Counted from the stretch's first letter, positions 36,420-63,961 are shown. The stretch: 64,000 nucleotides of DNA from Lentisphaerae bacterium GWF2_49_21 (GCA_001804805.1 MHBH01000073.1:94539-158538); one strand, 5' to 3'. Made by a program: numbers and translations. The notes: a model not told the origin generated them from the letters alone.

Positions 36420-36515
36420 CCACGAAGAATACCCGAAGCCCACGAGGTTAATTTATTTGCCCACGAATCACTCAGATATGAAATACAGATAAGAGATTTT
36501 CGCACAAAGCCACGG
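36420..36515 (+). promoter_or_regulatory. Four spaced ccacg(a/g)(a/g)g direct repeats in the sulfatase upstream region
   Basis: accacgaag, cccacgagg, cccacgaat and gccacggagg, spaced at 20-40 bp between divergent or adjacent genes. Confidence 0.25.
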
Positions 36516-36611
36516 AGGCACAAAGTTAAGATTACACCATTTCCATATCACAGGACGAACATGTTCGCCTGAGCCGATTCATTCAATAATAAATTTTTCA
36601 GAATGAAAAAA

Positions 36612-46222: not shown

Positions 46223-46233
46223 TGTAAGTTACA
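46223..46233 (+). promoter_or_regulatory. LacI-type palindromic operator candidate tgtaaGttaca (site 1 upstream of the regulator gene)
   Basis: 11-bp odd palindrome. The same motif recurs at 46298, 56364 and 56453. Confidence 0.55.
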
Positions 46234-46297
46234 TAAGGAAAATGAGGAAATACTTCAATAGGCCAATTGACAAAGGAGGATGAAAGAATATAATAGC

Positions 46298-46308
46298 TGT
46301 AACTTACA
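46298..46308 (+). promoter_or_regulatory. LacI-type palindromic operator candidate tgtaaCttaca (site 2, 15 bp upstream of the regulator ATG)
   Basis: Reverse complement of site 1. Flanked as gctgtaacttacagtaa. Confidence 0.55.
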
Positions 46309-46322
46309 GTAATAAAAATGGG

Positions 46323-47450
46323 ATGCCTATGAAGAAAAGCATATATGACATCGCGAAGATGGCTGGCGTTTCCACCGCGACAGTGTCCCGCGTAATGAAC
46401 AACACCGACCAGATCAGCGAAGCCACCAGGACCTCAGTCCTGAAGGCCATCAGGGACGCGAACTATGTGCCCCGCGGAAGCGGCAATGCAAGAACAAGAA
46501 GGAAATCCCCTGACTCCTTTGGAAATTCAGGTGGCACCTTTGAACTGCTTTTCTGCTTCAGCCACGGAGGAGAACGCCTGCATGTCGACGAAAGTAAAAT
46601 CGAAGTGCAGGAATTCAAACACATACCCCCGGAGGAGTTCGTGTCAGGAAGCTCCTTCTACAGGCCGATCAGCGACGGTGCTATCGACGAGGCGAGGAAA
46701 TTCGGATTCAAGACCATAATGCACTGCATCCGGAAGGACGCTCTGAACAGCGCGGAACTCATCCAGTCGCTCTACGACGACAAAATATCAGGTCTTCTTC
46801 TTGCAGGAGAACAGCCTGACGGACTTGCAGAATTCCTGAAGAACTTCAAGCTGCCTGTCATTCTCGTGGACATGATGGCCGGCAACGGCGCCGTGGAAGT
46901 CACCACCGACAATCTGGAAGGCATATCGCAGGCTTTTGAGCATGTCTATTCCCTCGGACACAGGAAGATAGGGTTCATGATTGGAGACGACAGTGTTCCG
47001 GCCTACCGGGAGAGACATCTTTCATTCGTATATAAGATGGCGGAAAAGGGGCTGAAGGTGAAGGAGGAATGGGTATACAGGGGAACGAACCACATAACTG
47101 ATGCAGCCGAATGGGGCATGAAGTTCTTCAAGCGCCGGGATCTGCCCACCGCCTTTCTCTGTACGAACGACTATTGTGCGCTGGGATTGCTCCGGGCGGC
47201 GTTCAAGAATGGAGTCAGGATTCCTGAAGATCTGAGCATTGTCGGATTCGACGACATGGAGACTTCAAGCCTGGTTACCCCTACGCTTACGACTGTGAAT
47301 GTGGCGAAGTCGGAGATTGGACGCTTTTCCGCAAGGGAACTTATCGTCTCATTGAAAAACGGGAGAAGGCCTTCAAATGCCCCGCAATGCCGTGTTCATC
47401 TTAAACCCAGTCTTGTGAAACGTGAATCCACTGCAGCGGTGAAGAAGTAG
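46323..47450 (+). CDS. LacI-family transcriptional regulator
   Basis: N-terminal [24 protein letters not shown], then a periplasmic-binding-protein-like sugar-binding core. Candidate operators lie upstream. Confidence 0.8.
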
Positions 47451-47458
47451 AGGGCTAC

Positions 47459-48289
47459 ATGGAAAATTTGAAATTTAAAATCGGAAATCGGCAATCCCAC
47501 TTCGCCCGAGGAGCTTCGAGGGACAGGTCGGCAATTGGCAATGCATTCACCCTTATCGAGCTCCTGGTCGTCATTGCGATCATCGCAATTCTCTGTGCGC
47601 TGCTTCTTCCCGCCCTCGGCCGCGCGAAACTGGTCGCACGAAGCATTGCGTGCTTGAGCAACATCAAACAGCTTGGAGTCTGGGGTCTCTCATATGGTGC
47701 CGACTATGATGGATATCTTCCATATAACGGACAGAAATGGCCATGCTCCTTTGAAGGATACGATGATGGCAGTTCCGGCTGGAGCGATACATCCAAATGC
47801 TCCCTGACGATTTCAGGCAAGACCGACGACACTGTCATGCACTGCCCCCAGACCAGCACGGCAATCGGGAAAACTTTGACCGGCGGCAAAGGCTGCCATT
47901 ATAGTCTGAATGCAAGGCTCGGAGCCGTGGGTTCACCAAACGCGGTGACACACTGGCCATATCCGCACATATCAAAACTGACCGAGAAGAAATTCTGGTT
48001 CGCCGATGGAGCCCTGCGTTACCGCCCAAGTGCAAGTCCGAAGGAGATCGCAATACAGTCGGCTATGATGTTCGACTACTGGGACAGCAACCCCCTCTGG
48101 GACGGCATGAAGCTGCCGTGGATGTGGTACAACGAATACTATAAAGTGACCGGGGCCGGAGGCCCTGTCCCGTTTGTTACACATCCTGGAGGTGCGAATT
48201 TTGTCTTTGGAGACGGACATGCGGAGGCGGTAAGATATTTATCCTATTACAATATGTCGGCTGCTGAAAAAAATGCATTCTATAAGTAA
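47459..48289 (+). CDS. DUF1559 (H-X9-DG) protein with a type IV pilin-like N-terminal helix
   Basis: …[30 protein letters not shown]…, and a C-terminal [13 protein letters not shown] (H-X9-DG). Confidence 0.8.
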
Positions 48290-48357
48290 GGCGGCGTTTT
48301 AACCCGCCTATCAAATGCCGGGCTAAAGCCCAACATACATAAAAACAGGAGAAATGA

Positions 48358-49110
48358 ATGAGAAACTGGCTTAATAAAAACTTAGTCAACGGTCTGCTCT
48401 TTTCGTCTTTTATCTATGCAGGAATCTTTTTCACTGCGGAAGCGCAGAACGGGCCGACGCCATATCCGGCGAAGGACTCCGACTGGCCGGGCAAAGGCGT
48501 CATAAGGAAGTTCGGATGGATGGACGACAACCGCAAATGGTTCTGGACGCAGCGCGAGAAGGACCAGGGATCCGTGGTTTTTGTCGGAGATTCGCTGACC
48601 GGCGGCTGGAAAGATCTTGCCAAGGCGTTTCCAGGGCTGAAAGTGGCAAACCGCGGCATAGGAGGGGATGTCAGCCGCGGAGTCCTCTTCCGTTTCCAGG
48701 AGGACGTACTTGATCTCAATCCCAAGGCGATAGTCATCACGGTTGGAACTAATGATCTTACGGCAATGGAAAAGACAGATGACTACGCTTCCAACCTATC
48801 AGATATCCTTTCAATGATTGAAAAGAAAAATCCTGCATTGCCGGTAGTCCTGTGTACGACTCCCCCGAGCGCAAATCCAAAGGCGCCTGTGAAGCTTTCC
48901 GAACGGCAGTCCCTGAACGCAAAGATCCTAAAGTATGCAGAAGGAAGGAAGAATGTGGCGATATGCGATCTTTATGCAGTGATGGCGAATGAGGACGGGA
49001 CGCCTAAGCCTGAATTTTTCGGTGAAGACAAGCTTCATCTCGCAGTACCGGGGTATGAAAAATGGACTGAAATGATAAAACCTGTTTTTGAAAAGCTCGG
49101 GATAAAATAA
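48358..49110 (+). CDS. SGNH/GDSL-family esterase
   Basis: Block I VVFVGDSLTGGW, block II NRGIGGD, and block III TVGTNDL. Signal peptide present. Confidence 0.75.
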   Translation: MRNWLNKNLVNGLLFSSFIYAGIFFTAEAQNGPTPYPAKDSDWPGKGVIRKFGWMDDNRKWFWTQREKDQGSVVFVGDSLTGGWKDLAKAFPGLKVANRGIGGDVSRGVLFRFQEDVLDLNPKAIVITVGTNDLTAMEKTDDYASNLSDILSMIEKKNPALPVVLCTTPPSANPKAPVKLSERQSLNAKILKYAEGRKNVAICDLYAVMANEDGTPKPEFFGEDKLHLAVPGYEKWTEMIKPVFEKLGIK

Positions 49111-49155
49111 TTTCTAAGCTGTGGCTTGAAGATGCCATCAGGAAGATAAGGAAAA

Positions 49156-50601
49156 ATGAAGAACATTGTCGCATTTATAATTTCATCTGCGCTGATTTCT
49201 GTCATTTCCGCCGGCATTTCTGCGGAGGAATCGGCTGTGGCCGATCCTGTTCCTGGAGATCCGGTGGCCAAAAATGAAAAACCGCCTGCAGCAGTTCCAA
49301 AAAATCCTGTTGCGAGATTCAGTATTGTTCCCGCAAGCGGACTTGTGGCGACGAAATTCACTCTGGACGCATCGTCAAGCTATGCTGCCGAAGGGGAAAT
49401 TATAAAATATATGTGGGATGTTGGTGGCGATGGGAAGGACTATGCCGAAGGAAAAGGAACCTCCTGTGAGTTTAGACCTGGGAAGGCCGGAACATATGCC
49501 ATCAACCTTAAAGTTGTGGACGCCAATGGTGCCGAGGCCGTCGCCAGCCGGAAAGTAACTGTCGGCGAAAGCGTGACAGTCGGTGGTGGAACCCTTGCAG
49601 CACCTGCTATCGGGCCGGATCCGAGACTCAGCAATGACGGCGGAGGCGACTGGATCCTGGTCGCGAACTATACTTTCGGAGCAGATAAGAAAGGCACGCT
49701 GGACGATCCTACCATCACTGACCGCAAACAGCTTGTTCAGAATATGCACTGCTATAATCCATTTGGATCGCCGGACTGCAGCGGACAATACTGGGCGAAG
49801 ACATGGATTCCGCCGGAAGCCGTGGAGATAGGGGACAATCCATACAAGATGAACGTATATACGCACGAGGCGCCGAATCATGAGATCGTCGACAATGCTG
49901 TACGTTGCTGGGTACGTAGCCTTGACGGAGAGATGAAGCAGGGGCATTTCAGCTACGGATATCTGCGTACCAAGTTCAAATGGCCGAATCCGACCGTCTC
50001 CGGGCAGGACGTATATGCCGAGGTGAAGTTCCGGATGGTGCCCAATCCGAACCATCCTGACGACATGCGCTTCTTCTGGCTGGCGTTCTGGAGCAACGAC
50101 GTTCCCTATACAGGTGAAATGGACTGGTTTGAAGGTTTCGGATATGACAATGGTCCGGGCAACAACAACTTCAAGGCCGCAGGAAATGCAGTATATCATT
50201 CCGACTGGGCAAAAGGCAAAGGCGCCGTCGGTAAGATAAGTTCCAAGACTTGGACCACGCAGACGCCTCCGGGTTCGGATCTGAAACAGTGGACGATCTT
50301 TGGGGGGCTCCTCTGCAGCGACGGATATTGGTCGACTTATGCAAGCAGTCCTGGAAAGCCCGGCGTACAGTTCGTCCCCAACTTCGGAACCTACGGGAAG
50401 GAGACGTTCAAAGACAACTGGCAGTATTATCTTGAAGGGACGCATGGGAACCAGAAGGTGAAGAACTGCATGCCGCCGGGATTGAGCATGGAATCGAACA
50501 TAGATGCGACATGGTTCCCTTATTCGTATGAATGGCAGTACCTGCGCATCTACATGAGGGACAGGAAGGAAAAAATGAAGGGTGGTGGAGACGTCAAATA
50601 G
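49156..50601 (+). CDS. Secreted PKD-domain protein with a C-terminal GH16-like domain
   Basis: Signal peptide. PKD domain (FSIVPASGLVATKFTLDASSSYAAEG…YMWDVGGDG). GEMDWFEGF fits the GH16 E-x-D-x(x)-E catalytic motif. Confidence 0.65.
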   Translation: MKNIVAFIISSALISVISAGISAEESAVADPVPGDPVAKNEKPPAAVPKNPVARFSIVPASGLVATKFTLDASSSYAAEGEIIKYMWDVGGDGKDYAEGKGTSCEFRPGKAGTYAINLKVVDANGAEAVASRKVTVGESVTVGGGTLAAPAIGPDPRLSNDGGGDWILVANYTFGADKKGTLDDPTITDRKQLVQNMHCYNPFGSPDCSGQYWAKTWIPPEAVEIGDNPYKMNVYTHEAPNHEIVDNAVRCWVRSLDGEMKQGHFSYGYLRTKFKWPNPTVSGQDVYAEVKFRMVPNPNHPDDMRFFWLAFWSNDVPYTGEMDWFEGFGYDNGPGNNNFKAAGNAVYHSDWAKGKGAVGKISSKTWTTQTPPGSDLKQWTIFGGLLCSDGYWSTYASSPGKPGVQFVPNFGTYGKETFKDNWQYYLEGTHGNQKVKNCMPPGLSMESNIDATWFPYSYEWQYLRIYMRDRKEKMKGGGDVK

Positions 50602-50609
50602 GGATTATT

Positions 50610-52898
50610 ATGGAAATAAAAAGAGGGAAAAAGAAAGAAAAAATGAAAAAGAGAGGAACGAAGAAACCGGTTCTGAGCCCGATGGTGGCGCAGGCGGTGG
50701 AGTTCACGGAGACTTACAAGAAGCACATTGACGATCACATCGCGATCCGCGAGGCGGTGTGTTTGAAGACGCAGTATCCTGCGATCCTAAGGGATCTGCG
50801 TCCTGAAGATACTCTTGCCGGTCGTAGGCCGGAAGACATCATCGTCTATTTCGGGACGATATGGTGGCATTGGTACCCTGAATGGCGCAAAGGGATTGAG
50901 TCTGCTGGAAAACAGGGCGGATACTGCGTCAATTTTTCGGCAGCCAAGACCTGCGCGAAGAACGATGCTGAGAGGAAAGTCCTCGAGAAAGTTCTTGATT
51001 TTTGGGAGGAGGAATGCACACAATCTAAGATAAGGAAAATCTGGGACGACGAAGTGAAGAATAGCTTCCTTGGAGGAGCAAGTACAGGATTCTGCATGTC
51101 CATGGATTTCAACCGTCTTCTCAAGCGAGGAGTTCCCGGATTAATCGATGACATAAAGGCAAGAAAAAAGAAGATCAAGAAAATGGGAGGAGATGGAAAA
51201 TTCCTCGACGGGCTCCTCATAATGCTCGATGTCTTCAAGGACACCTGCCACCATTACCGGAAACAGGCCGAAGCATTAGCAGAAAATGCGAAATCCGCAA
51301 AGGACAGGAAGAGGCTTGAGGAGACCGCCAGGATTCTTGAAGCGATAACCATAAGAGCTCCGCAATCTTTCCGCGAAGCTGTCCAACTGCTCTGGCTCTA
51401 TCTCATAATGGGAAGCGGAAAGCATATCGAGCCCGGAAGATTAGACATATTCCTTGGTGATTTTTATGCAAACGACATAGAGAAGGGAGTGATTACCGAG
51501 GAAGAGGCGATGGAAACCATACTCGCGCTTTGGAATGTGATCGATGAGAACGGAGAACCTGCGGTGAGCCGCGTGGTCCTCGGCGGAAAAGGCAGGAGGA
51601 ACGAAAAGAACGCCGACAGGTTCGCAATGGCCGGACTTGAAGCGACAAGGCGATTTAAAAAAGTCAAGCCCCAGCTCACCTTCAGATTCTATGAGGGACA
51701 GGATCCGAAGCTGTTTACCAAGGCTTTGGACGTTGTCGGGGAAAACGGTGTCTTCCCGATGTTCTACAACGACGACACCAACGTTACCGGTGCATCGAAA
51801 AGCCTTGGGGTTTCCCTGGAAGAGGCTGTGCGCTACCATCCGCTCGGATGTGGGGAATACATGCTTGCCTGGTGCAGTCCGAGCCTGCTTGACAGCGCGT
51901 GGAGCGTTCCAAAATCGTTCCTTGCTGCGCTTCACGATGGATTCTACTGTGAAAGACGGAATATTGGTCCGCGCACAGGAACAGTTGAGAAATTTGATTC
52001 TTTCAACAAGCTTTATGAAGCCTACAAGAAACAGATAGATTATGCGATGGACATCTCCGCGCGTATCTACAAGGGGATATGCGATGGACATCCAAAACAG
52101 AACGCTTTCCTCTTCGCGAGTCTCCTGAGCGACGACTGCCTTGAACGCGGCAGGGCCATGTTCGACGGAGGCATCCGGTATCTGGGAGGATGCGAGATGG
52201 GGCATGGATACACTAATTCGTCAGATTCACTTACTGCCATTAAAAAAATCGTATATCAGGAAAAGAAGATTTCCATTTCTGAACTCGTAAAGATCCTCGA
52301 TAATAATTTTAAAGGGCGGGAAGATGTCAGGAAGATGCTCCTTGAGGCTCCGAAGTTCGGCAATGATGACAAGGATGCCGACGGAATGATGACTGACATG
52401 TGGAAATACATCCACAAATCTGCGAAACTCGCAGGAAAAAAAGAGGGTCTTGACTTCCTCGTTGTCAGCAGCGTAAATCCAGGCGGATATGGGATGGGCA
52501 AGGACTGTGGAGCAACTGCCGACGGGCGCAAAAAAGGTGAACCGTTTGCAATAGGAATGGCTCCGACGGCCGGATTCGACAAGAGAGGACTGACGGCGAT
52601 GTTCAATTCCATATCGAAAGTGGATCCTGCACACGGCGGGGCTACTACGAACATCAAGCTGTCTCGGGAATTCTTCACCAATGAACGAGCCAAAATGGAA
52701 ATGCTCTTCAAGGTCTATTTCAAGAAGGGTGGAATGCAGGCGAATGTAACCGTTGTCAACAAGAATGATCTCCAGGCCGCGCTGAAGGAACCGGAGAAGT
52801 ATTCGCATGTGATGGTCCGCCTCGGCGGATGGTCGGCACGATTCATCGATCTGGAGCCGATGATACAGGAGGAGATCTTAAGAAGGACGCTGTATTGA
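50610..52898 (+). CDS. Glycyl radical enzyme (PFL2/dehydratase-like clade) with an atypical radical-site motif
   Basis: C-terminus VMVRLGGWSARFIDLEPMIQEEILRRTLY matches RVSGYSAxFxxL…E(I/V)IxR, but with G-W instead of G-Y. Active-site loop YHPLGCGEY. Mid-protein GRLD…FY..D…G.IT.EEA.E motifs are typical of glycyl radical enzymes. I chose the ATG at 50610; the track ORF's 5' extension overlaps the upstream gene. Confidence 0.75.
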   Translation: MEIKRGKKKEKMKKRGTKKPVLSPMVAQAVEFTETYKKHIDDHIAIREAVCLKTQYPAILRDLRPEDTLAGRRPEDIIVYFGTIWWHWYPEWRKGIESAGKQGGYCVNFSAAKTCAKNDAERKVLEKVLDFWEEECTQSKIRKIWDDEVKNSFLGGASTGFCMSMDFNRLLKRGVPGLIDDIKARKKKIKKMGGDGKFLDGLLIMLDVFKDTCHHYRKQAEALAENAKSAKDRKRLEETARILEAITIRAPQSFREAVQLLWLYLIMGSGKHIEPGRLDIFLGDFYANDIEKGVITEEEAMETILALWNVIDENGEPAVSRVVLGGKGRRNEKNADRFAMAGLEATRRFKKVKPQLTFRFYEGQDPKLFTKALDVVGENGVFPMFYNDDTNVTGASKSLGVSLEEAVRYHPLGCGEYMLAWCSPSLLDSAWSVPKSFLAALHDGFYCERRNIGPRTGTVEKFDSFNKLYEAYKKQIDYAMDISARIYKGICDGHPKQNAFLFASLLSDDCLERGRAMFDGGIRYLGGCEMGHGYTNSSDSLTAIKKIVYQEKKISISELVKILDNNFKGREDVRKMLLEAPKFGNDDKDADGMMTDMWKYIHKSAKLAGKKEGLDFLVVSSVNPGGYGMGKDCGATADGRKKGEPFAIGMAPTAGFDKRGLTAMFNSISKVDPAHGGATTNIKLSREFFTNERAKMEMLFKVYFKKGGMQANVTVVNKNDLQAALKEPEKYSHVMVRLGGWSARFIDLEPMIQEEILRRTLY

Positions 52899-52905
52899 GA
52901 ATGTA

Positions 52906-52926
52906 GAACAGGCATCTTGCCTGTTC
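52906..52926 (+). terminator. Hairpin after the glycyl radical enzyme (gaacaggca tct tgcctgttc), first of three related 'caggc' hairpins
   Basis: Perfect 9-bp stem starting 8 nt after the stop. Related hairpins at 53001-53017 and 53072-53090. Confidence 0.4.
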
Positions 52927-53098
52927 ATTGAATTGAATATCCAATATCCAACAAGGAATTTCGAATGTCCAAGTGGAGATATTTTAAACAAGAGAAGACC
53001 ACAGGCGGGACGCCTGTTCCACATTGAAAGAATAAAAGAAAGTGGTACAGCCGTCTCGGCTGTAATTAGATCACAGGCAAGATGCCTGTGTTACATTT

Positions 53099-54007
53099 AT
53101 GGGAAAGCAAGGATTAATATTCGCAATCGAAAGATGCTCCCTGCACGATGGGCCGGGGCTGCGGACGACTGTCTTTTTGAAGGGCTGTCCGCTGCACTGC
53201 CATTGGTGTCACAATCCCGAATCACAGTCGTCATATCCTGAGCTCTATTTTCTCCGCGAGAAGTGCACCCTCTGCGGATCATGCGTCAAAGCGTGTCCGA
53301 ACAAATGCCACAGCCTGAGCGTGAGCAACCACGATATAAACCGTGTCCTATGCGCCAGATGCGGATGCTGTGTTTCAGCGTGTTCAAACTCTGCGCTTGA
53401 GATAAAAGGAAATCCCATGGGAGTTGAGGATGTTCTTGCGGAAGTCGAAAAGGACCATGACTTCTATGTTGAATCCGGAGGAGGCATGACGCTTTCCGGC
53501 GGTGAGCCTATGATGCAGTATGAATTCGCCGCAGAACTTCTTAAGCAGTCGAAGAAGAAAGGATTCCACAACTGCATTGAGACCAGCGGATTTGCACCTA
53601 AGGAAAGATATCTGAAGATCAGGAAGAACGTTGATATTTTCCTCTTTGACTTCAAGGAAAGCGATCCAGAGAGGCATCTGAAATACACCGGGGTGGATAA
53701 CAAGCAGATCCTGGAGAATCTTTTCGAACTGGACAGGAAAGGTTCGAAGATAATCCTGCGCTGTCCGATCATACCGGGATTGAACGACAGGAAATCTCAC
53801 CTTGAAGAAATTGCTAAACTCGCAGGGAAACTCAAGAATATAATCGAGATCAATGTCATGCCGTATCATCCGATGGGAAAATCGAAGAGCGGAAGAATCG
53901 GCAAGAAGCAACCGCATGACAGCGACAGTTTCACGGAGAATGAGAAAGTCGAGAAATGGATCAAGTTCATTGGAAGGAGAACTACTATTCCAGTGAAAAA
54001 GGGATAA
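53099..54007 (+). CDS. Glycyl-radical-enzyme activating protein (radical SAM with ferredoxin-like insert)
   Basis: GCPLHCHWCHNPES (Cx3Cx2C), two extra Cys clusters (CTLCGSCVKACP and CARCGCCVSACS), and GGMTLSGGEP. Confidence 0.85.
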   Translation: MGKQGLIFAIERCSLHDGPGLRTTVFLKGCPLHCHWCHNPESQSSYPELYFLREKCTLCGSCVKACPNKCHSLSVSNHDINRVLCARCGCCVSACSNSALEIKGNPMGVEDVLAEVEKDHDFYVESGGGMTLSGGEPMMQYEFAAELLKQSKKKGFHNCIETSGFAPKERYLKIRKNVDIFLFDFKESDPERHLKYTGVDNKQILENLFELDRKGSKIILRCPIIPGLNDRKSHLEEIAKLAGKLKNIIEINVMPYHPMGKSKSGRIGKKQPHDSDSFTENEKVEKWIKFIGRRTTIPVKKG

Positions 54008-54092
54008 ATAGAGGAGCGCCACCATCTTGGTGGCATAATAATAATTGCCGGCAGGATGCCGGCGCTCCATTTATACAAAAAGGGGAGAAGAT

Positions 54093-55175: not shown

Positions 55176-55312
55176 TGTTTGTAGTAGGCGTATTTATACG
55201 CCGTTAAGTAGGTACGTGCTTCAGCATGTACCATCTTAATCAGTAAGAAGGGGACAGGCTAAAGCCCGTCCCTACCTTATAGAACGCGCAATAAATTGCG
55301 CTACTACCAACG
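55176..55312 (+). repeat. Structured repeat element, copy 2; starts 1 nt after the GH26 stop codon
   Basis: TIRs gtttgtagtag / ctactacCaac. Hairpins ggcgtat-tt-atacgcc, ggtacgtgc-ttca-gcatgtacc, gggacaggc-taaa-gcccgtccc and gcgcaat-aa-attgcgc. Confidence 0.75.
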
Positions 55313-55334
55313 GAATAATAACAAAGGAGAGTTC

Positions 55335-56312: not shown

Positions 56313-56363
56313 AAGTTAAATATTTCCTGTTCTCACGTCATAGGCGGAAAAAGTGCAGGCCGC

Positions 56364-56374
56364 TGTAAGTTACA
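56364..56374 (+). promoter_or_regulatory. LacI-type operator candidate tgtaaGttaca (site 3, upstream of the DUF1559 gene)
   Basis: Identical to site 1 at 46223. It lies 110 bp upstream of the TTG/ATG of the 56484 gene. Confidence 0.5.
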
Positions 56375-56452
56375 TGGCGATAAATGTAAATATTTTATCA
56401 TCCCCCATTGACATAAGAGGATAAAAAGCATAAACTGAAGGTATGCAGGCAA

Positions 56453-56463
56453 TGTAACTTACA
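56453..56463 (+). promoter_or_regulatory. LacI-type operator candidate tgtaaCttaca (site 4)
   Basis: Identical to site 2 at 46298, and in the same order, spaced 89 bp after site 3 (the pair at the regulator is 75 bp apart). It lies 21 bp upstream of the start codon. Confidence 0.5.
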
Positions 56464-56483
56464 GTGATAATGGCTGGAGGCTT

Positions 56484-57212
56484 ATGAAAAACTCGAAACT
56501 TGCAATCCGAAGTTCGAAAGACGGGAGAGGGAAAAGAGGTTATTTTACGCTCATTGAGTTGCTCGTGGTCATCGCCATCATCGCGATTCTGGCGGCATTG
56601 TTGCTTCCGGCGCTGAACAATGCCAAGTTGACGGCAAAAAGCGTAGTGTGTCTGAGCAATCTCAAACAAAATGTTTTAGCTGCCTACTCATATGGTTCCG
56701 AAAATGACATGTATGTGCCAATTATAGGAAAGCTCGCAGGGGGATGGAGAGATTATTCGTATTTGTTGACGCAAGAAAAATATATGGATAATAGCAATGC
56801 CCGAGCTTGTCCTCGCGGCCAACCCTACAAAAGCTGTTATGGCTATGGAACACAAAGTGGAACAGCCAGTTCTGGCCCCAGATTTGAAGCCCCTTATCCG
56901 GCTTTCAACATATCATATGGGGGAGGAGACTATATGAAATTTCGAGCACTAAATCAAATATCTCAGCCAAATAATTATACATATATTTGTGATGTAAGCA
57001 ATTGGGAAGCCAAACAATACTTCGACGTTACACCAACAAACGCCTGGGCTTCTTTGGGGCTGCGTCATTTTCGGAAGGCCAACGCTGCTCTATGGGATGG
57101 TCACGCAGAAGGGCGCACAGGGAAAAACTGGTACAACTCTGGATTCACCTCAGGATTTATTGTCCTCAGCGAGGCCATTGCCTCCAGCAGTGCTGCTCCG
57201 GTTAATTTTTAA
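56484..57212 (+). CDS. DUF1559 (H-X9-DG) protein with a type IV pilin-like N-terminus
   Basis: …[31 protein letters not shown]…, and a C-terminal [13 protein letters not shown]. Confidence 0.8.
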
Positions 57213-57258
57213 GGTTGATTGTTCTCGCAGCTCTGTTTTCGGGAACATCGTTTTATAA

Positions 57259-58020
57259 GTGAAAGGTCTTGTTATGAAAATCAAAATCCCTGACAGTCTG
57301 CTGAAAAAATACTATGTTGATTGGGGTTGTAGATGGGGACTCACCCGCGAGCGTCTTATGCAAGTGATTTATTACATGTATGCAGACAGTCCCAACATCC
57401 ATATTGGCAAGCGGGTCTATATGAGAAGTCTTCAGACAATAGGGAGTGTCCATCCCGATTCATCTCTGTCCATTGGAGACGAATCCGTCTTCTGGGGGAA
57501 ATCGAATATTTGCGCAAGTTATGGCGGGCAAATCAGCATTGGAAGCCGCTCTTTGATCGGAGATAACAACAACACCTTGTGTCGCAACCGAGTTTCCATC
57601 GGCAATTATGTGCTGACTGCTCAAAACCTGAGCATTCGTGATTATGAAGATCATCCGATTCCTCCACGCGAACGGAAGGCGCAGGTCAGCTACTGTATAC
57701 GTCAATACAATCCATTTCATGATCCTTCCAACATAGGGCTTTCGCCGGAAGAAATAGAGTATTTCGACACCTACTGGAACGATAAAAGATATTTTGTTTC
57801 TGCACCGGTTGAAATAGGCGACAACTGCTGGATCGGGCACGACGTTACCATTATGAAAGGTGTTAACATCAGCGAAAACTCCATTATCGCCGCCCGTTCC
57901 GTGGTGACCAAATCCGTACCTCCCAACTGTATCGCCGGCGGTGTGCCAGCTCGGGTGCTAAGGGAAAATCTCGACCAAGATGATCCGGAGGAATTCTGGA
58001 AAAACAGGCCGCAAACATGA
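57259..58020 (+). CDS. Hexapeptide-repeat (LbH) acetyltransferase
   Basis: C-terminal left-handed beta-helix repeats CWIGHDVTIMKGVNISENSIIAARSVVTKSV…GGVPARVL. Confidence 0.7.
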   Translation: MKGLVMKIKIPDSLLKKYYVDWGCRWGLTRERLMQVIYYMYADSPNIHIGKRVYMRSLQTIGSVHPDSSLSIGDESVFWGKSNICASYGGQISIGSRSLIGDNNNTLCRNRVSIGNYVLTAQNLSIRDYEDHPIPPRERKAQVSYCIRQYNPFHDPSNIGLSPEEIEYFDTYWNDKRYFVSAPVEIGDNCWIGHDVTIMKGVNISENSIIAARSVVTKSVPPNCIAGGVPARVLRENLDQDDPEEFWKNRPQT

Positions 58021-58088
58021 TTGACACTTTTCAATAAAGGTGCCGTTCCGGAAAAACTGTTAGATGGACAAAATAATATAAGGAGATT

Positions 58089-60878
58089 ATGAAAATCAAA
58101 GTTCTTATGGCAATCTTTGCTGTGGCGCTATTCCTTGTTATGGACGCCGTATCCGCCGCCGACGTTTCCCTGAACGACAATGGCATAGCTGTTACGGTCA
58201 AGGGAATGGGCGGATTCAACCTTGGTTATCCGGTACTTCAGCCTGGTGATTTGAAACCTTTGCAGAAGAAGGTTTCCGGCAAACAGGCAGATGTCACCTA
58301 CGCCAAAGACATAAAAGTCCACCTTGAAGTGGTTGATGGCGGAAAAGTCAACATGAAATTCAGCAATGCCTCTGCGGTCAAGAACTTCAGGCTCGATATC
58401 GGATTTGGTGCGCAGTTAGCGGATGGCGGCACCTGGACCATCGGCAAAGGCCAGCCGCAAACCTTCCCGGTCGAGAAACCGGCGAAACCTCACCTCTATC
58501 AGGGCAACTCGGGAGGCTTTACATTGATCGATGCGGCCGGACACATATTGTCTGTCACAGGTTTTCCCGACTACGCCTATCAGGAACTGACCGATCTTCG
58601 CGAATGGGGCAACAAGGCATACGCTTGGAAAGTGACTGTCCCCTACAATCCAGGATGGGAAGTTCACAGCATAGTAGTCAGCGAGAAACCACATGGCGCC
58701 GCTGCCACTGCTGCTCCAACGACCGTGAAAGTTCAGGTCGACCGCTTTGGACAGACCACACGCAAGGACTTTCCGGGCAAAGTGAAGGACGAGGCTGACC
58801 TGAAGGCTGATGTAGCAAACGAAGCGGCATACTGGGCCAGCTATAAGCCGATACCAGTTGACAAATGGGGAGGACTTCCCGGCAGCAAGGAAAAGCTCGG
58901 ATTGAATTCGACTGGATTCTTCCGGGTTGAAAAGAAGAATGATCGCTGGCTGCTCATCAATCCTGACGGCAACGTCACGTTCCACCTTGGAATCTGCGTT
59001 TTCAGCTATAATCCGGGTGATGAGGCGACATACATCAAGGACCGCCGCGACATCTACGAGTGGCTTCCTCCGCTAGATGGAGAATTCGCCGACGCCTGGC
59101 ACCCAGACAAGTGGTGGCATGATCAGGTTTTCTCATTCTATTCTGCAAACGTCATCCGCAAATATGGCAAGGAGACAACCAAGGACCAGCAGATAGCGCG
59201 TCTGATTGACCGCGTGCGCGCAGTGGGATTTAATGCCATAGGCGCGTTCTCAGGTTCATCCCGGGCATTCGTTGACAAGCATATCCCGCGCATGTCCGGT
59301 GTCGGGTTCAATCCAGAACTGCCCGGCATCCGCGGAGTAGCTGATCCATTTGATGAGGAAACGCGTAAGAAGACAGAGGAAATCTGGGCGGAAAAATTGC
59401 CCAAACAGGCGGACGATCCTCTGATCATCGGATTCTTCTTTGCAAACGAGCAGGGATTCGAGGATATTCCGCGGGCCGTTCCGCAGTTGCCAGGGAAACA
59501 TGCGGCAAAGAAAAAACTTGTCGAAATGCTGCAGAAGAAGTATCCGACCATCGCCGAATTCAACACCGCCTGGAACCTGCAGGTTGCGGATTTCGCAGCT
59601 CTTGCCGACAAGGGACTGCCAGTGTCAACCAAGGCCGCCTACGCCGACATGCAGGAATATACCGAACTGTTCCTCGACACATACTTTAAATTCCTCACCG
59701 AGACTTTCCGCAAATATGACAAGAACCATCTGATGGTGTCCAACCGCTGGCAGCCAGGCACCGCAAACAACGAGGCCCTCTGCCGCATCGCCGGCAAGTA
59801 TATGGACGTCATCAGCATCAACTATTATACCTGGGGTGTAGACAAGAACTTCATCGAGCGACTCTATAAATGGACTGGTGGTAAACCGCAGATGTGGAGT
59901 GAGTTCTACTACACCAGCGGTATCGAGAGCAACGTTGCGGCTGGCGGCTTGGACATGAAGTCGCAGCAGGCTCGTGGTGAGGCTTACCGCCAATACGTCG
60001 AGCAGGCTGCTGCCCTCGGGTTCGTGGTTGGTGTCGAATGGTTCACATTGATTGACCAGGCGGTGACCGGACGCTGGTTCTCAAAGCTTAACGGCGAACG
60101 CGCCAACAGCGGACTATTCAACACCTGCGACCGTCCATACGACACCTGTCTGCGTGAGATGGCGAAGTCGCATGAGGTCTTATACGACGTTCTGTTGAAC
60201 GGGAAGAAACCCTTTACCCTTGAAGACCCTCGCTTTGCAGGTGGTGCAGGCAAGACCCGCAAGCAGGTGCAGGCTGGCAGTGTGCCTGCCGGTAGCATTA
60301 AGATCGACGGAATGGCCGATGGATGGCCGGGCCGCCCCCCGGAGCGTGTCACAAACGATCGTCTGGTCGAGGGCAAGGACGGCAAGGGGCTTGAAGGATC
60401 CTTCAAGGTAGCCTGGGACACTGACAATCTCTATCTGCTAATCAATGTCACCGATCCGACGCCTCTCAATAACACTGCTCAGGGTGATAAACTGTGGAAC
60501 GGCGACGGAGTTGAGCTGTTCATCGGCAGCGAAAAGCTGGACCAGCCCGGAACATTGCTGTTCAGCGATCGTCAGGTGCTGCTTGCAGGCCGGACGGATA
60601 TCAAACCGGGAAGCACTCATATTGTGAACGCCGCAAAACAGCCTGAGATCCGCCTGATCAACGTGCCGTCGGTCGACGGCAGCGGTTATACCATGGAGGC
60701 GGCTATTCCGTGGGCCGCGCTCGATGTGAAGCCAGTCGAAGGGATGGATCTTATCTTTGACATGGCGATAGATGACGCTCCACAAGGTGGCAGCCGTACC
60801 CGCCAGATCATGTGGAATGGCGGCGAAAAGAACAGTAGTGATCGCTCATATTGGGGCCGCCTGAAACTGGTGCGATAA
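58089..60878 (+). CDS. Secreted large glycoside hydrolase-like protein with a C-terminal CBM9/DOMON-like carbohydrate-binding domain
   Basis: Signal peptide. Central TIM-barrel-like region with an NEQ acid/base-like motif (FFANEQGFED) and ISINYYTWG. C-terminal …IKIDGMADGWPG…FKVAWDTDNLYLLINVTD…GDGVELFIG is CBM9-like. Confidence 0.55.
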   Translation: MKIKVLMAIFAVALFLVMDAVSAADVSLNDNGIAVTVKGMGGFNLGYPVLQPGDLKPLQKKVSGKQADVTYAKDIKVHLEVVDGGKVNMKFSNASAVKNFRLDIGFGAQLADGGTWTIGKGQPQTFPVEKPAKPHLYQGNSGGFTLIDAAGHILSVTGFPDYAYQELTDLREWGNKAYAWKVTVPYNPGWEVHSIVVSEKPHGAAATAAPTTVKVQVDRFGQTTRKDFPGKVKDEADLKADVANEAAYWASYKPIPVDKWGGLPGSKEKLGLNSTGFFRVEKKNDRWLLINPDGNVTFHLGICVFSYNPGDEATYIKDRRDIYEWLPPLDGEFADAWHPDKWWHDQVFSFYSANVIRKYGKETTKDQQIARLIDRVRAVGFNAIGAFSGSSRAFVDKHIPRMSGVGFNPELPGIRGVADPFDEETRKKTEEIWAEKLPKQADDPLIIGFFFANEQGFEDIPRAVPQLPGKHAAKKKLVEMLQKKYPTIAEFNTAWNLQVADFAALADKGLPVSTKAAYADMQEYTELFLDTYFKFLTETFRKYDKNHLMVSNRWQPGTANNEALCRIAGKYMDVISINYYTWGVDKNFIERLYKWTGGKPQMWSEFYYTSGIESNVAAGGLDMKSQQARGEAYRQYVEQAAALGFVVGVEWFTLIDQAVTGRWFSKLNGERANSGLFNTCDRPYDTCLREMAKSHEVLYDVLLNGKKPFTLEDPRFAGGAGKTRKQVQAGSVPAGSIKIDGMADGWPGRPPERVTNDRLVEGKDGKGLEGSFKVAWDTDNLYLLINVTDPTPLNNTAQGDKLWNGDGVELFIGSEKLDQPGTLLFSDRQVLLAGRTDIKPGSTHIVNAAKQPEIRLINVPSVDGSGYTMEAAIPWAALDVKPVEGMDLIFDMAIDDAPQGGSRTRQIMWNGGEKNSSDRSYWGRLKLVR

Positions 60879-60990
60879 GTAGGTACGTGCTTCAGCATGT
60901 ACCATCTTAATTTCTAAGAAAGGGACAGGCTTCCGACTTCGCCCAATGGGCTACGCCGGACACAGAAAGCCCGTCCCTACTTTTAGAACG
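60876..60990 (+). repeat. Structured repeat element, copy 3 (5'- and 3'-truncated, with a 36-bp palindromic insertion in the loop of hairpin 3); overlaps the stop codon of the 58089 gene
   Basis: taagtaggtacgtgcttcagcatgtaccatcttaatt…gggacaggc[ttccgacttcgcccaatgggctacgccggacacagaa]agcccgtccctac…agaacg. It lacks the gtttgtagtag and ctactac termini. Confidence 0.65.
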
Positions 60991-61061
60991 ATCAAACACG
61001 AACTGTCCATCAACTCTAGGGTTGAATAAGAAATGATTAGTACAGCAAGAGAAAGATAAAA

Positions 61062-61730
61062 TTGAAAATTGAAAATAAATTTACCCTTATCGAACTGCTG
61101 ATCGTGATTGCGATCATCGCAATTCTCATCGCCCTTCTGCTGCCTGCCCTTAAGAATGCAAAGCTGTCTGCAAAAAGCGTGGTGTGCCTGAGCAATCTCA
61201 GGCAGAATGCCGTAGCGGCCCTGGCGTATTCCGCGGACAATGATCTGCGGGTTCCGCTTTTCACAATCAGTGGCAGCCATGATTATTCAAGGTTCCTGAC
61301 TGATGGCAAGTACCTTGAAGCAACACCTGCCAGAGGCTGTCCCTGGGCTCCGCCGTATGGCACAAAATACGGACCGGGCAACATATCTACATCTCGCGGC
61401 TATGGTGTCTTTGCTTCAGGTGCCAGTACAGAGAGCTTTGGAACGACCACGGTGTATATCCTTTCATTGTCGAAATTAACAAATCCTGCCAACAAGGTAT
61501 ATATCATTGATTCAAGCACAGGGCAGGGGGCCCAGTATCCCGATCTTGCCTGGGGTTTTCCTTCCTGGGCTGTTGGATTTGTGGGGCTTCGCCATTTCCG
61601 CAAGGCCAATGCGGCGCTCTTTGATGGACGTGCCGAGGGACGCGAAGGAAAAGCCTGGGGGCTTACTGGCGCCTATCTTGTCCTGAAAGATACGATTAGT
61701 TCAAACAGCGCGGTTCAGTTGAATTTCTAA
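61062..61730 (+). CDS. DUF1559 (H-X9-DG) protein with a type IV pilin-like N-terminus; TTG start
   Basis: (TTG) [34 protein letters not shown]…, and a C-terminal [13 protein letters not shown]. Confidence 0.75.
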
Positions 61731-61764
61731 TAAAGATTTACTTAATTATGAAAGGTTCAAGAAA

Positions 61765-62742
61765 ATGATGAGGCAAAAAGAAGTTATCCATGTAGTATTT
61801 GCGGCGATATTGCTTGTGTCACTCTCTGTGATCTGCAGCGGTGAGGAACCAGCTACAGCCACGACGTCAGTCATTAAAGACAGTCCCTACGTCCCTGCTG
61901 GCTACAAGAAGGTGTTCGGGGACGAATTTGACGGCGCAAGCCTTTCACTTACCAACTGGTGGACCCGTTACATCTACAACAACGGCATGCTCGACACACT
62001 CAACGACGAGAAACAGCTCTTCCGTGAAAACAACAACCATGTCATGACCGGTACGACCCTGCAGCTGACAGCCCGCAAGGTGTCGAACTCTAATCCGCGC
62101 TTCCAATATGAATCGGGAATGATCCGGTCGAAGATGACATTCAAGTATGGCTATTACGAGTCACGGCTCAAGGTGCCGGGCGGTCTCGGTGTCTGGCCCG
62201 CGTTCTGGCTAAACAGCGATTCCGACGCTAATGGAAAAACCTCCTGGCCGCCGGAGATAGATATACTTGAATTTGTCAATAATGGCAAGGATGACCGGCC
62301 CGACATGGTGCACATGACTGCGCAGGTGAAGAATAAGAAAGGTGAACCGAATCCCTGGGGAGGAGAGGAACTGTTCCGGGATCCGGACTTCAAGAAGCGC
62401 AACTATTATGCGCCATTCAAGTTCCCTGATGACTTCCATGTTTTCGGCCTGCTCTGGGATACGGATGATACCGTGACCTGGTTCGTGGACGGGAAGAAGC
62501 TTTTCACTGTATCCTACAAGTGGGTTTATGCGAACGGCAAGGATGCACCAAACGCCCATGTCCTGCTCAACCTGTCGATAGGAGGACAATGGGCTGGCCG
62601 GTACGGCGTCGACGACAAGGCTTTCCCACAGGCGCTCGATGTCGACTACGTCCGCGTCTACCAGAAGCCCGATCAAATCAAGACTGGCCAGAGCACCATC
62701 GGAAAAGATTTGCTTAAGGATCCGAACGAGGAGAAAAAATGA
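61765..62742 (+). CDS. Glycoside hydrolase family 16 (laminarinase/beta-glucanase-like)
   Basis: Signal peptide. Canonical GH16 catalytic motif EIDILE (E-x-D-x-x-E) in the context WPAFWL…WPPEIDILEF. Confidence 0.75.
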   Translation: MMRQKEVIHVVFAAILLVSLSVICSGEEPATATTSVIKDSPYVPAGYKKVFGDEFDGASLSLTNWWTRYIYNNGMLDTLNDEKQLFRENNNHVMTGTTLQLTARKVSNSNPRFQYESGMIRSKMTFKYGYYESRLKVPGGLGVWPAFWLNSDSDANGKTSWPPEIDILEFVNNGKDDRPDMVHMTAQVKNKKGEPNPWGGEELFRDPDFKKRNYYAPFKFPDDFHVFGLLWDTDDTVTWFVDGKKLFTVSYKWVYANGKDAPNAHVLLNLSIGGQWAGRYGVDDKAFPQALDVDYVRVYQKPDQIKTGQSTIGKDLLKDPNEEKK

Positions 62743-62884
62743 TCCGTCTTGCAAGGATGGGACTTGTTTCTCCCCTTCAGGGAGAATCAAATTTTCTGAA
62801 TTCTATACCTATGGTTGAAACCATAGGCTATATTATTTAACGCATTTCATGCGTAAAGAGAATAATAAACAATAGGATTCATAT

Positions 62885-63961
62885 ATGACAGGCAAAGAAA
62901 GAACATTGCTGGCGATCAATTTTGAACCGACAGACCGGATTCCGGTCGTAGGCGGATTTGTGCGGCATCCGCAGTTTCTGGCGGAGATGGCAGGTGTTTC
63001 CGTTGAAGAATTCTGGACTGATCCAAGGAAGACGGCCATCCGGGCCTTCCATTCTCTGGGAGTTGATGTCATCATCGGCCTGATCCTGCCAAATCGGGAT
63101 TCCTCCAGCGGGGCACAACACGACATACACAAGCAGACGCGTTTTGATTCTCCGGAAGCAATGCTTGACGACATCGCCAAATTACCGAGCCTGTCTGACC
63201 TGCATAAGAATTTTGTTTTCCAGAAGCATTATGACGATTATCTTAAGCGGTATAAGGATGGACAGACGGAAATTGGAGAAGAGATCCTCTGGATTCCAAA
63301 CACCTTCGACTGTGTCGCCCAGTTCCAGAACGAAGGCTATTTCGGCGCTGAAAATTACTACATGGCATTGTCATTGTTCCCCGAGGCAATGAACAGGTTT
63401 TTTGAACACTCAGGAGAGACCGCATTCCTGCGTAACACCGCAGTCGCCAAGGCGATTGTCGAGAACGATTTGCCGAGGGTGATGTGGCTCGGACAGGATT
63501 CCTGTGACAACCGCGGACCGTATATCGCCCCAGAGATCATGAACGATATCTACATTCGGCATGTCAAGCGCTCGCTCGAGCCTCTCAAGGATATAGGTGT
63601 AAAGATCATCTGGCACTCGGACGGCAATATCATGCCTATCGTCCCATATCTGCTTGATGCAGGCATTGACGGATTCCAAGGCATGCAGGAGACCATCGAG
63701 ACAAAGGTCGACGTTGAAAAGCTGGGAGGAGTGACCACCCGTGCCGGCAAGAAACCCATTATTGTGGGCAGTCTCTCCAGTATCACCATAATGCCCTTCG
63801 GCACACCGGATGATGTACGTGCAGACGTTGTCCGCTGTCAGGAACTGGCCCGGAAACGCGATGGTGGATGGCTGTTGAATTTTTCCTCGTCAATTGGTCC
63901 GGAAGTTCCGGCAGCGAACATACAGGCTTTTTTCGACCAGGCCTCCAGAAAGCCGAAATGA
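62885..63961 (+). CDS. Uroporphyrinogen-decarboxylase-like (URO-D/MtaA-like) family protein
   Basis: N-terminus MTGKERTLLAINFEPTDRIPVVGG…, as in URO-D-like proteins. (beta/alpha)8 pattern. Confidence 0.5.
   Translation: MTGKERTLLAINFEPTDRIPVVGGFVRHPQFLAEMAGVSVEEFWTDPRKTAIRAFHSLGVDVIIGLILPNRDSSSGAQHDIHKQTRFDSPEAMLDDIAKLPSLSDLHKNFVFQKHYDDYLKRYKDGQTEIGEEILWIPNTFDCVAQFQNEGYFGAENYYMALSLFPEAMNRFFEHSGETAFLRNTAVAKAIVENDLPRVMWLGQDSCDNRGPYIAPEIMNDIYIRHVKRSLEPLKDIGVKIIWHSDGNIMPIVPYLLDAGIDGFQGMQETIETKVDVEKLGGVTTRAGKKPIIVGSLSSITIMPFGTPDDVRADVVRCQELARKRDGGWLLNFSSSIGPEVPAANIQAFFDQASRKPK

Follow-up and report, generated by a model that had tools for sequence, protein, structure and literature searches.

Operons of the LacI/GalR type, such as lac, gal, pur and cyt, are among the described systems closest to the locus reported here, as are the loci in which bacteria collect their glycan-degrading genes, namely the SusC/SusD polysaccharide-utilization loci (PULs) of the Bacteroidota and the carbohydrate-active enzyme (CAZyme) clusters of Gram-positive bacteria. 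The Planctomycetota, Verrucomicrobiota and Lentisphaerota degrade complex and sulfated glycans, yet they do so without SusC/SusD, and their routes of enzyme secretion and glycan uptake are a puzzle. The DUF1559/H-X9-DG proteins are among the largest families without an assigned function in these same three phyla. Here we describe a locus in a 64,000-nucleotide stretch of DNA (hereafter, “the window”) from Lentisphaerae bacterium GWF2_49_21 (GCA_001804805.1, MHBH01000073.1:94539-158538), which sits on a 192-kb contig of a metagenome-assembled genome (MAG) from groundwater. An 18-kb block on the plus strand, from 46223 to 63961, encodes one LacI repressor and three pilin-like DUF1559/H-X9-DG proteins. 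It also encodes six glycan enzymes with Sec-type export signals and four cytoplasmic enzymes, one of which is a glycyl-radical enzyme (GRE). Our explanation of the whole, in which we have about even confidence, is that the block is an autoregulated, LacI-repressed glycan-utilization regulon of an uncultured anaerobe. That these genes, the pilin-like ones included, belong to one regulon is very probable. A repressor-controlled CAZyme cluster is a known kind of system; the poorly understood components of this one are the DUF1559 proteins and the clade to which the GRE belongs.

The first gene of the block (46323..47450, plus strand) encodes a LacI-family repressor, composed of an HTH_LacI domain and a sugar-binding domain of the periplasmic-binding-protein (PBP) type. 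It scores above the cut-offs of PF00356 (65.5 bits, E = 3.6e-18), PF13377 (118 bits, E = 5.5e-34) and PF00532 (95 bits). The palindrome TGTAA-S-TTACA (TGTAANTTACA) is present in four exact copies in the window, at 46223, 46298, 56364 and 56453, where the expected number is 0.05; none of 100 shuffled sequences reached four copies. Its sole match with one mismatch elsewhere in the window, at 17178, is within chance expectation (0.87). The G-centered and C-centered forms of the palindrome are reverse complements of one another and therefore represent a single site in two orientations. A preliminary description of this DNA had placed the palindrome before the regulator and before the second pilin-like gene. 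Both locations are correct, but the copies number four, in two pairs, rather than two.

Each pair of palindromes brackets one promoter. Before lacI, the distal operator (TGTAAGTTACA; 46223..46233) and the proximal operator (TGTAACTTACA; 46298..46308) lie on either side of a predicted sigma-70-type promoter, P1 (TTGACA-16-TATAAT; 46267..46294, plus strand), which matches the consensus at 12 of 12 positions; the proximal operator starts 3 bp after its -10 box. Before the second pilin-like gene, exact palindromes at 56364..56374 (distal) and 56453..56463 (proximal, starting 16 bp after the -10 box) surround a homologous sigma-70-type promoter, P2 (TTGACA-17-TAAACT; 56408..56436, plus strand). About 35 bp separate the distal operator from the -35 box downstream of it, and the proximal operator lies at or just after the predicted transcription start. 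The two regulatory regions are 75% identical (column identity) over some 150 bp, and this identity extends to the promoter core, -35 box included; the second region thus looks like a duplicate of the first. From the position of the palindromes and their co-conservation with the regulator gene, we infer that the LacI protein binds them.

Two other Lentisphaeria genomes carry an orthologous locus: GCA_001804815.1 (L005), whose GRE is 88% identical to that of the window, and GCA_964600895.1 (L091), whose GRE is 91% identical. Both retain the operator pair before lacI, 73-76 bp apart; the operators and the -35 box of P1 are invariant, and the other intergenic DNA has diverged. As judged by comparison of the three genomes, the operator pair and the -35 box before lacI are a phylogenetic footprint. 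A DUF1559 gene directly follows lacI in every case, at a distance of 8 bp from the lacI stop codon in the window, 1 bp in L005 and 47 bp in L091, and the products of these genes in the two relatives are 77-83% identical to the first pilin-like protein. The core that the relatives have in common comprises LacI, DUF1559, an SGNH esterase, a PKD protein, a GH50-like/CBM9 protein, the GRE, its activase, GH26, CE4, a second GH50-like/CBM9 protein and GH16, after which comes the same MscS gene. The synteny that the preliminary description had proposed to look for is thus conserved in two related genomes. Its tying of the pilin-like genes to the glycan regulon is also borne out, by the identical operator pairs at the promoters of lacI and the second pilin-like gene and by the conservation of the lacI site.

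The relatives differ from the window in other respects. The orthologous loci of L005 and L091 lack the second and third pilin-like genes, the acetyltransferase, the URO-D-like gene and the second operator pair, and these are therefore accessory elements of the window genome. On the minus strand of L091, at 1-2625, genes for an ABC sugar transporter (a binding protein and two permeases) diverge from lacI and share with it the operator-bearing intergenic region, and a gene of the GlcNAc-2-epimerase family (18527-19837) lies between those for GH50/CBM9 and GH16; both the transporter and this gene are absent from the window locus. At a more distant locus (L101; GRE 54% identical), a pilin-like gene, a 777-aa GH16 protein and a 940-aa GH50-like/CBM9 protein adjoin the GRE.

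The pilin-like genes lie on the plus strand at 47459..48289, 56484..57212 and 61062..61730, and the window contains none outside the block, that is, three in 18 kb and zero in the other 46 kb. The first is 100% identical to A2X48_04800; the third is a paralog of the second (52% identity). The sequence motifs of all three confirm their earlier designation as DUF1559/H-X9-DG proteins with pilin-type N-termini: each has the FTLIELL(V/I)VIAIIAIL N-terminus, the C-terminal H-X9-DG motif and the hallmark N-terminal sequence of the family (LLLPAL...AK...C.SN.KQ). Only the first, which has an N_methyl match, reaches the threshold of a hidden Markov model (HMM), with 27.5 bits against a cut-off of 19 for TIGR04294; its score for Pfam PF07596 falls below threshold (20.5 vs. 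23.3 bits), and the other two have no match to this family. Homologs of the first protein, a listing of which gave more than 7600 matches, do carry PF07596. In 69 homologs, the F, T, L, I, E, L and L of the N-terminus are invariant, in a hydrophobic alpha-1N segment with Phe(+1) and Glu(+5), and two Cys residues and the His/Asp/His of the C-terminal motif show little or no variation. Matches in NCBIfam and the Protein Data Bank (PDB) are confined to the N-terminal 25-60 residues and are to pilins and pseudopilins. An AlphaFold2 (AF2) model of the first protein (pLDDT 76) predicts a helix of about 50 residues (32-82) followed by an alpha/beta head, with the H-X9-DG segment as a C-terminal beta-hairpin. 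The head domains have diverged: those of the three proteins are 28-44% identical to one another, and the orthologs of the first drop from more than 70% to less than 40% identity with nothing in between. The GC content at third codon positions (GC3) is 0.44 for the second pilin-like gene, 0.44-0.51 for this gene and the acetyltransferase together, and 0.52 for the third pilin-like gene; it is 0.56-0.66 for the other genes. These values are consistent with the acquisition of the second pilin-like gene and the acetyltransferase as a module that came under the same regulation.

Proteomics has placed proteins with N_methyl and SBP_bac_10 domains in detergent-soluble membrane fractions; genes for proteins with signal peptides often adjoin theirs, and the family has expanded to at least 41 genes per planctomycete genome (PMC8567305). 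The literature covers these aspects and assigns no function to the family (PMC8567305, PMC2754498). In the literature that we searched on DUF1559/H-X9-DG proteins, there is only the family expansion and the fractionation, and we found neither a link to sugar regulators or CAZyme loci nor an account of a module like the present one; in this respect our search agrees with the preliminary description, which held that such a locus had not been described as a defined system.

The coupling of a regulator to a DUF1559 gene is seen beyond these genomes. We sampled 80 loci with DUF1559 relatives from genomes of the Planctomycetota-Verrucomicrobiota-Chlamydiota (PVC) group. Immediate upstream neighbors of the DUF1559 genes (n = 61) had a Peripla_BP_3 sugar-sensor domain in 10 cases, a GntR-type helix-turn-helix in nine (largely the same set) and an AraC-type one in two more. 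In an iterative search, a PBP-type regulator on the same strand occupied the position directly upstream of 8 of 69 DUF1559 genes, compared to 9 of 346 other positions within four genes on either side (Fisher p = 0.003). All eight of these modules are from Lentisphaerota or Victivallales. The gene that follows DUF1559 is glycan-active in seven of them, each time from another family (GH78 rhamnosidase, LamG, GH123-like, CBM4_9, beta-helix, sulfatase and CBM4_9+CBM9). One locus (L010) has the order LacI, DUF1559 and a 1285-aa CBM9 protein, and in another (L009) a DUF1559 gene lies within a Pel9A/sulfatase cluster. Further, a crude predictor, whose rule agreed with calls by eye on 11 genes of the window, assigns signal peptides to 34% of the genes directly downstream of DUF1559 and to 18% of upstream genes (p = 0.009). 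These observations support the recurrence across the Lentisphaerota of an arrangement in which a regulator, a DUF1559 protein and a secreted glycan enzyme are encoded in succession. A strict search for perfect matches found no paired palindromes upstream of the regulators in nine other regulator-DUF1559 modules, which neither supports nor refutes a general architecture.

These data also bear on whether the pilin-like genes came to lie here by chance. PVC genomes hold such large numbers of DUF1559 genes, as the family expansion cited above and the thousands of homologs of the first protein attest, that three of them in an 18-kb CAZyme cluster could mean nothing, and the second and third are not conserved in the relatives. 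We regard this explanation as very unlikely, given that the three genes are confined to the block, that an operator pair stands directly before the second, that the coupling of lacI to DUF1559 is conserved in three genomes, and that regulators are significantly enriched directly upstream of DUF1559 genes across the 80 loci.

All of the genes named in the preliminary description are present, and all are on the plus strand (open reading frame (ORF) listing, Pfam and NCBIfam scans). Sec-type signal peptides are found on the SGNH, PKD, GH26, CE4, CBM9 and GH16 proteins, and the same inspection found none on LacI, the GRE, the activase, the LbH acetyltransferase or the URO-D-like protein. The secreted enzymes include an SGNH/GDSL esterase (48358..49110; PF13472, E = 1.9e-22), a GH26 glycanase (54093..55175; PF02156, E = 3e-10) and a CE4 polysaccharide deacetylase (55335..56312; PF01522, E = 1.4e-11). 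The closest solved structure to the GH26 protein is the GH26 domain of C. thermocellum endoglucanase H, a lichenase; mannanases come next. The 929-aa glycoside hydrolase with a C-terminal CBM9 (58089..60878; CBM9_1, E = 1.6e-24) can now be described more precisely as GH50-like, since its residues 318-700 match four structures of GH50 beta-agarases in the PDB with E-values from 2e-42 to 3e-34. The GH16 protein encoded near the end of the block (61765..62742; PF00722, E = 1.5e-20) is closest to laminarinases and beta-1,3(4)-glucanases (PDB, E = 3e-26).

The sixth secreted enzyme, a PKD protein (49156..50601; PKD_4), had at first been called a PKD-GH16 protein. Its C-terminal domain (49576-50598, 341 residues) has no Pfam match, and the searches for GH16 in it by Pfam (E <= 1), pairwise BLASTP and hhalign were all non-significant; the GH16 label thus fails by profile comparison. 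It is upheld by the predicted fold and by an E-x-D-x-x-E motif. An AF2 model of the domain, of moderate quality (pLDDT 67), has agarases, porphyranases and carrageenases of family GH16 as its top Foldseek matches (E = 1e-8, probability 1.0), and the residues E181, D183 and E186 of the motif are invariant or nearly so in an alignment of 14 sequences. Relatives are few, three by a word index and 17 by HMMER among 1.84e9 representative proteins, and some of them carry CBM6/35, fn3 or Ig domains. The model and the motif support the assignment of this domain to a very divergent GH16-like family, which may be a new and nearly orphan one.

Taken together, the glycanases, the SGNH esterase and the CE4 deacetylase point most simply to an acetylated beta-linked glycan as the target. 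The signals from the individual families differ: one GH16-like domain resembles agarases, the CBM9 protein is GH50-like, the GH26 enzyme is lichenase-like and the second GH16 is laminarinase-like. The GH50-like and agarase-like GH16 folds prompted us to consider that the substrate might be agar or porphyran and that the GRE might open 3,6-anhydro-galactose. We did not adopt this proposal, because the MAG is from groundwater, there is no GH117, the other glycanases are lichenase- or laminarinase-like, and the GRE clade has GH130, GH92 and GH2 as neighbors. A beta-mannan is a possible substrate, a suggestion prompted by the GH26 enzyme, by GH130 genes beside the GRE elsewhere and by the GlcNAc-2-epimerase-family gene of L091.

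The GRE (50610..52898; PFL-like, E = 1e-103) is followed by the gene for its radical-SAM activase (53099..54007; TIGR02494, 337.8 bits against a cut-off of 174). We place the start of the GRE at 50610; a longer ORF from 50532 overlaps the PKD gene, and the homologs are 745-762 aa long. The protein has the glycyl-radical motif RLGGWSARF (PF01228, 74 bits) and the cysteine loop PLGCGEYML, whose GCGE includes the Cys-x-Glu found in GRE eliminases. Relative to glycerol dehydratase, the equivalents of Cys433, Glu435 and Asp447 are kept, and His164, His281 and Ser282 are replaced by Cys, Lys and His, respectively. By these residues and by its score (309 for TIGR01774, with a cut-off of 678), it does not fit the glycerol and propanediol dehydratases. 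The best match to a GRE of solved structure has 281 bits, and the score for every NCBIfam GRE model is far below its cut-off.

The clade of this GRE, within which identities range from 38 to 91% and PLGCGE and RLGGWSARF are invariant, extends through the Lentisphaerota, Bacillota, Bacteroidota, Planctomycetota and other phyla. Homologs at 38-57% identity occur in Anaerotaenia torta, in a GH94-GRE-activase-GH130 locus, in Flavobacterium nackdongense, where GH43, GH130, a sulfatase, the GRE, the activase, GFO oxidoreductases, a 3-keto-disaccharide hydrolase, an MFS protein and PMI are encoded together, and in other phyla. In 77 metagenomic loci, the neighbors of the clade are the activase (45 loci), AraC (21) and LacI (11) regulators, GH130 (11, usually directly upstream), GH92/GH43 (11), an ABC binding protein (9), an SSF transporter (7), GFO/IDH/MocA proteins (7), GH2 (6) and URO-D-like proteins (6). 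By its neighborhoods, the GRE is a consistent member of carbohydrate loci and belongs to an uncharacterized clade. The reaction that this GRE catalyzes is probably a C-O cleavage or a 1,2-elimination with a sugar-derived substrate. A review (June 2026) lists as sugar-acting GREs only YbiW and PflD, which are 1,5-anhydro-hexitol-6-phosphate C-O lyases (PMC13450708), and our search of the literature on sugar-related GREs found only these two.

Two further cytoplasmic enzymes complete the inventory. A hexapeptide-repeat (LbH; Hexapep) O-acetyltransferase resembling LacA and Maa is encoded at 57274..58020; its best NCBIfam match is galactoside O-acetyltransferase, at 82.8 bits and below the cut-off. 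The last gene of the cluster (62885..63961) encodes a URO-D/MtaA-like protein (PF01208, E = 8.5e-16; weak match to MtaA/CmuA). The presence of URO-D-like genes near the GRE clade in 6 of the 77 loci suggests that this gene is a recurrent partner and not a chance neighbor.

Several intergenic elements, all on the plus strand, may act at the RNA level. Between the genes for the GRE and its activase (52899..53098) is an array of four GC-rich hairpins, three copies of ACAGGC-N5-GCCTGT and a variant (TACAGCCGTCTCGGCTGTA). The three copies compare with 0.01 expected in the window, and these hairpins occur nowhere else in its 64 kb. The corresponding gap contains three hairpins of another sequence in L005 and none in L091. 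The array may be an intercistronic RNA stabilizer or an attenuator that uncouples the levels of the GRE and the activase. A 59-nt direct repeat occurs at 55202..55260, starting 27 nt after the GH26 stop codon, and at 60873..60931, where it overlaps the GH50 stop codon and was flagged as terminator-like. The copies are 92% identical and hold a strong hairpin (GGTACGTGCTTCAGCATGTACC) and the beginning of another inverted repeat (GGGACAGGC...GCCCGTCCC); they may be REP-like or terminator-like and mark sub-operons. Finally, a hairpin at 62808..62838, 47 nt upstream of the URO-D-like gene and the only copy in the window, resembles the Acido-Lenti-1 RNA motif (RF01687), with 28.1 bits against a gathering score of 37 (E = 0.007). 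It keeps the stem ends CCUA...UAGG and the 3' tail CUAxxUUAU, and the interior of the stem has changed in a compensatory manner. Apart from this sub-threshold match, no riboswitch or other known RNA was found in the block.

Downstream of the URO-D-like gene are genes for a DUF748/AsmA-like protein and an MscS channel and other unrelated genes, and the cluster is therefore taken to end at 63961. Upstream of 46223 are genes for a GNAT protein, a DUF188 protein and two small proteins that match no known family; farther upstream, the window has housekeeping functions along with a small number of isolated sugar genes, namely GH32, a GFO-type oxidoreductase and a sulfatase. These last form a separate small group on the minus strand (33598-38126), composed of a GH32/GH43-like hydrolase, a GFO/IDH/MocA oxidoreductase and a sulfatase, with neither a pilin-like gene nor the palindrome. 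A 1688-aa alpha-2-macroglobulin-like protein (38436-43502) adjoins this group.

We propose that, with no inducer present, a dimer or tetramer of LacI binds both operators, possibly looping the DNA, and that P1 and P2 are thereby off; a sugar derived from the glycan would relieve this repression. P1 would drive lacI, the first pilin-like gene, and the genes for the SGNH esterase, the PKD protein, the GRE, the activase, GH26 and, probably, CE4. P2 would drive the second pilin-like gene, the acetyltransferase gene and that for GH50/CBM9, and the third pilin-like gene and those for GH16 and the URO-D-like protein would be served by read-through or by unrecognized promoters. The six Sec-exported enzymes would deacetylate and depolymerize a beta-linked, probably acetylated glycan outside the cytoplasm. 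In the cytoplasm, the GRE and its activase would act on a sugar-derived product by radical chemistry, either cleaving a C-O bond or effecting a 1,2-elimination, with the URO-D-like and LacA-like enzymes in accessory roles. The DUF1559 proteins, in this scheme, would be membrane-anchored, pseudopilin-like adaptors that work with a general machinery of the type II secretion or type IV pilus kind, carrying the co-encoded Sec-exported enzymes across or onto the outer membrane. We favor this role in secretion or display because each DUF1559 gene directly precedes one or more secreted enzymes, and we advance it tentatively.

A number of observations weigh against this explanation or parts of it. The regulon and the pairing of LacI with its operators are predictions from sequence. 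A central CG is typical of many operators of the LacI family; the 11-13-bp site found here has an odd center and no central CG. Searches of the window for exact palindromes and for those with one mismatch found none before the third pilin-like gene or the URO-D-like gene, and terminator-like repeats follow the GH26 and GH50 genes, which makes it uncertain where the operons end and how the last four genes are controlled. With regard to the DUF1559 proteins, so large a paralogous family is expected to yield some adjacency by chance, and the second and third, being absent from both relatives, would be dispensable for the core pathway. The best fold matches to the model of the first protein are pilins, but these matches are weak and the quality of the model is moderate. 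No gene for type II secretion system (T2SS) or type IV pilus (T4P) machinery is present in the window or in the 10 kb downstream. Lastly, prepilin peptidases normally need a Gly at position -1, and the residue before FTLIELL is Ala in the first pilin-like protein, Tyr in the second and Lys in the third. This residue is Gly in 27-39% of the family, Ala in 26-41% and another residue in about 30%. Its identity here makes cleavage and filament assembly doubtful, at least for the second and third proteins.

The same residue casts doubt on the reading, in line with the preliminary description, that the DUF1559 proteins replace SusC/SusD. As a mechanism, they would build, or sit at the tip of, a retractile pilus or pseudopilus able to bind the glycan and draw oligosaccharides in across the outer membrane. 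Domain scans of the block and its flanks revealed no SusC-like TonB-dependent transporter, SusD-like lipoprotein or other outer-membrane importer domain, and they revealed no inner-membrane transporter at the window locus; an uptake device made of pilins would account for these absences. The rapid divergence of the head domains is as expected of ligand-specific parts, and the first pilin-like gene is the first structural gene of the locus, predicted to be co-transcribed with the sensor and regulator. The replacement of SusC/SusD is not supported, however, and the presence of a pilin-like gene for each enzyme sub-module is easier to square with an enzyme-linked role than with a single uptake device. 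Further, a single DUF1559 gene is predicted to suffice in the relatives, which would degrade the same core substrate, and in L091 it is an ABC transporter that uses the common regulatory region. We therefore consider uptake by a pilus unlikely.

Another possibility, which we judge to be quite unlikely, is that the DUF1559 proteins remain uncleaved, anchored by their N-termini in the inner membrane and facing the periplasm, where they hand oligosaccharides to a transporter or signaling partner; the Pfam name SBP_bac_10 evokes such a function, and the pilin-like N-terminus would be an anchor only. The Ala, Tyr and Lys residues at position -1 agree with this, as do the tight linkage of the genes to sugar-sensing regulators, the ABC transporter that adjoins the orthologous locus in L091 and the presence of the family in detergent-soluble membrane fractions (PMC8567305). 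Yet a simple anchor would hardly account for the invariant Phe(+1) and Glu(+5) and the complete alpha-1N segment of a pilin. In addition, the fold in the model of moderate quality resembles a pilin and not the two-lobed fold of solute-binding proteins, and no transporter adjoins the window locus.

The preferred reading, that of a LacI-repressed regulon with DUF1559 proteins as adaptors, makes the locus a defined test case, in which a repressor and its likely operators are predicted to control three pilin-like genes together with six secreted CAZymes. The recurrent module of regulator, DUF1559 and glycan enzyme is testable both statistically and genetically, and identification of the GRE substrate would extend anaerobic carbohydrate metabolism by a new radical step. 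A broader proposal joins the two poorly understood components: the DUF1559 family would be the specificity layer of a pilus- or pseudopilus-based glycan-utilization machinery in the Lentisphaerota, and perhaps in PVC bacteria at large, and the GRE would perform a new radical reaction on sugars in the catabolism of mannosides or beta-glycans across phyla. Modules of regulator, adaptor and secreted enzyme, with each glycan locus having its own, would then plug into a single shared motor of the type II secretion or type IV pilus kind, as a functional counterpart to the SusC/SusD PULs. That both halves of this proposal hold is, in our estimation, improbable.

Among known systems, the regulatory part of the locus is most like the lac, gal, pur and cyt operons: the repressor combines HTH_LacI with a type-I PBP domain, and palindromic operator pairs surround a sigma-70 promoter, with one operator overlapping the transcription start. 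A gene for a LacA-like acetyltransferase is a further point of resemblance to the lac operon. The locus departs from the LacI/GalR operons in the odd-centered 11-13-bp operator without a central CG and in its complement of secreted polysaccharide-degrading enzymes, pilin-like genes and a radical enzyme. Its co-localized genes for glycoside hydrolases (GH), carbohydrate esterases (CE) and carbohydrate-binding modules (CBM), together with a dedicated regulator that is predicted to be sugar-responsive, are features of the PULs of Bacteroidota and of Gram-positive CAZyme clusters. Unlike the former, it has no SusC/SusD and no adjacent transporter, the regulator is of the LacI type and not a hybrid two-component system or an ECF sigma factor, and DUF1559 genes are interleaved with those of the enzymes.

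The individual components show the same mixture of likeness and difference. With the pseudopilins of the T2SS and the type IV pilins (GspG-K, PilA), the pilin-like proteins share the FTLIELL alpha-1 helix, Phe(+1) and Glu(+5), and the model of the first, of moderate quality and with weak fold matches, suggests a lollipop shape; they differ from canonical pilins in that all three lack Gly(-1). All three have the hallmark N-terminus and the H-X9-DG motif of the DUF1559/SBP_bac_10/H-X9-DG-CTERM family (PF07596, TIGR04294), although only the first passes an HMM threshold. The GRE resembles the GRE eliminases and sugar isomerases (B12-independent glycerol dehydratase, propanediol dehydratase, HypD and YbiW/PflD) in its glycyl-radical motif, its Cys-x-Glu and its equivalent of Asp447, and, as in those systems, it has a dedicated activase with extra ferredoxin-type clusters. 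It stands apart from them in matching GREs of solved structure with at most 281 bits, in the replacement of the residues that bind substrate in glycerol dehydratase and in being embedded, across phyla, in CAZyme loci with GH130, GH92, GH2, GH94, GH16 and GH50.

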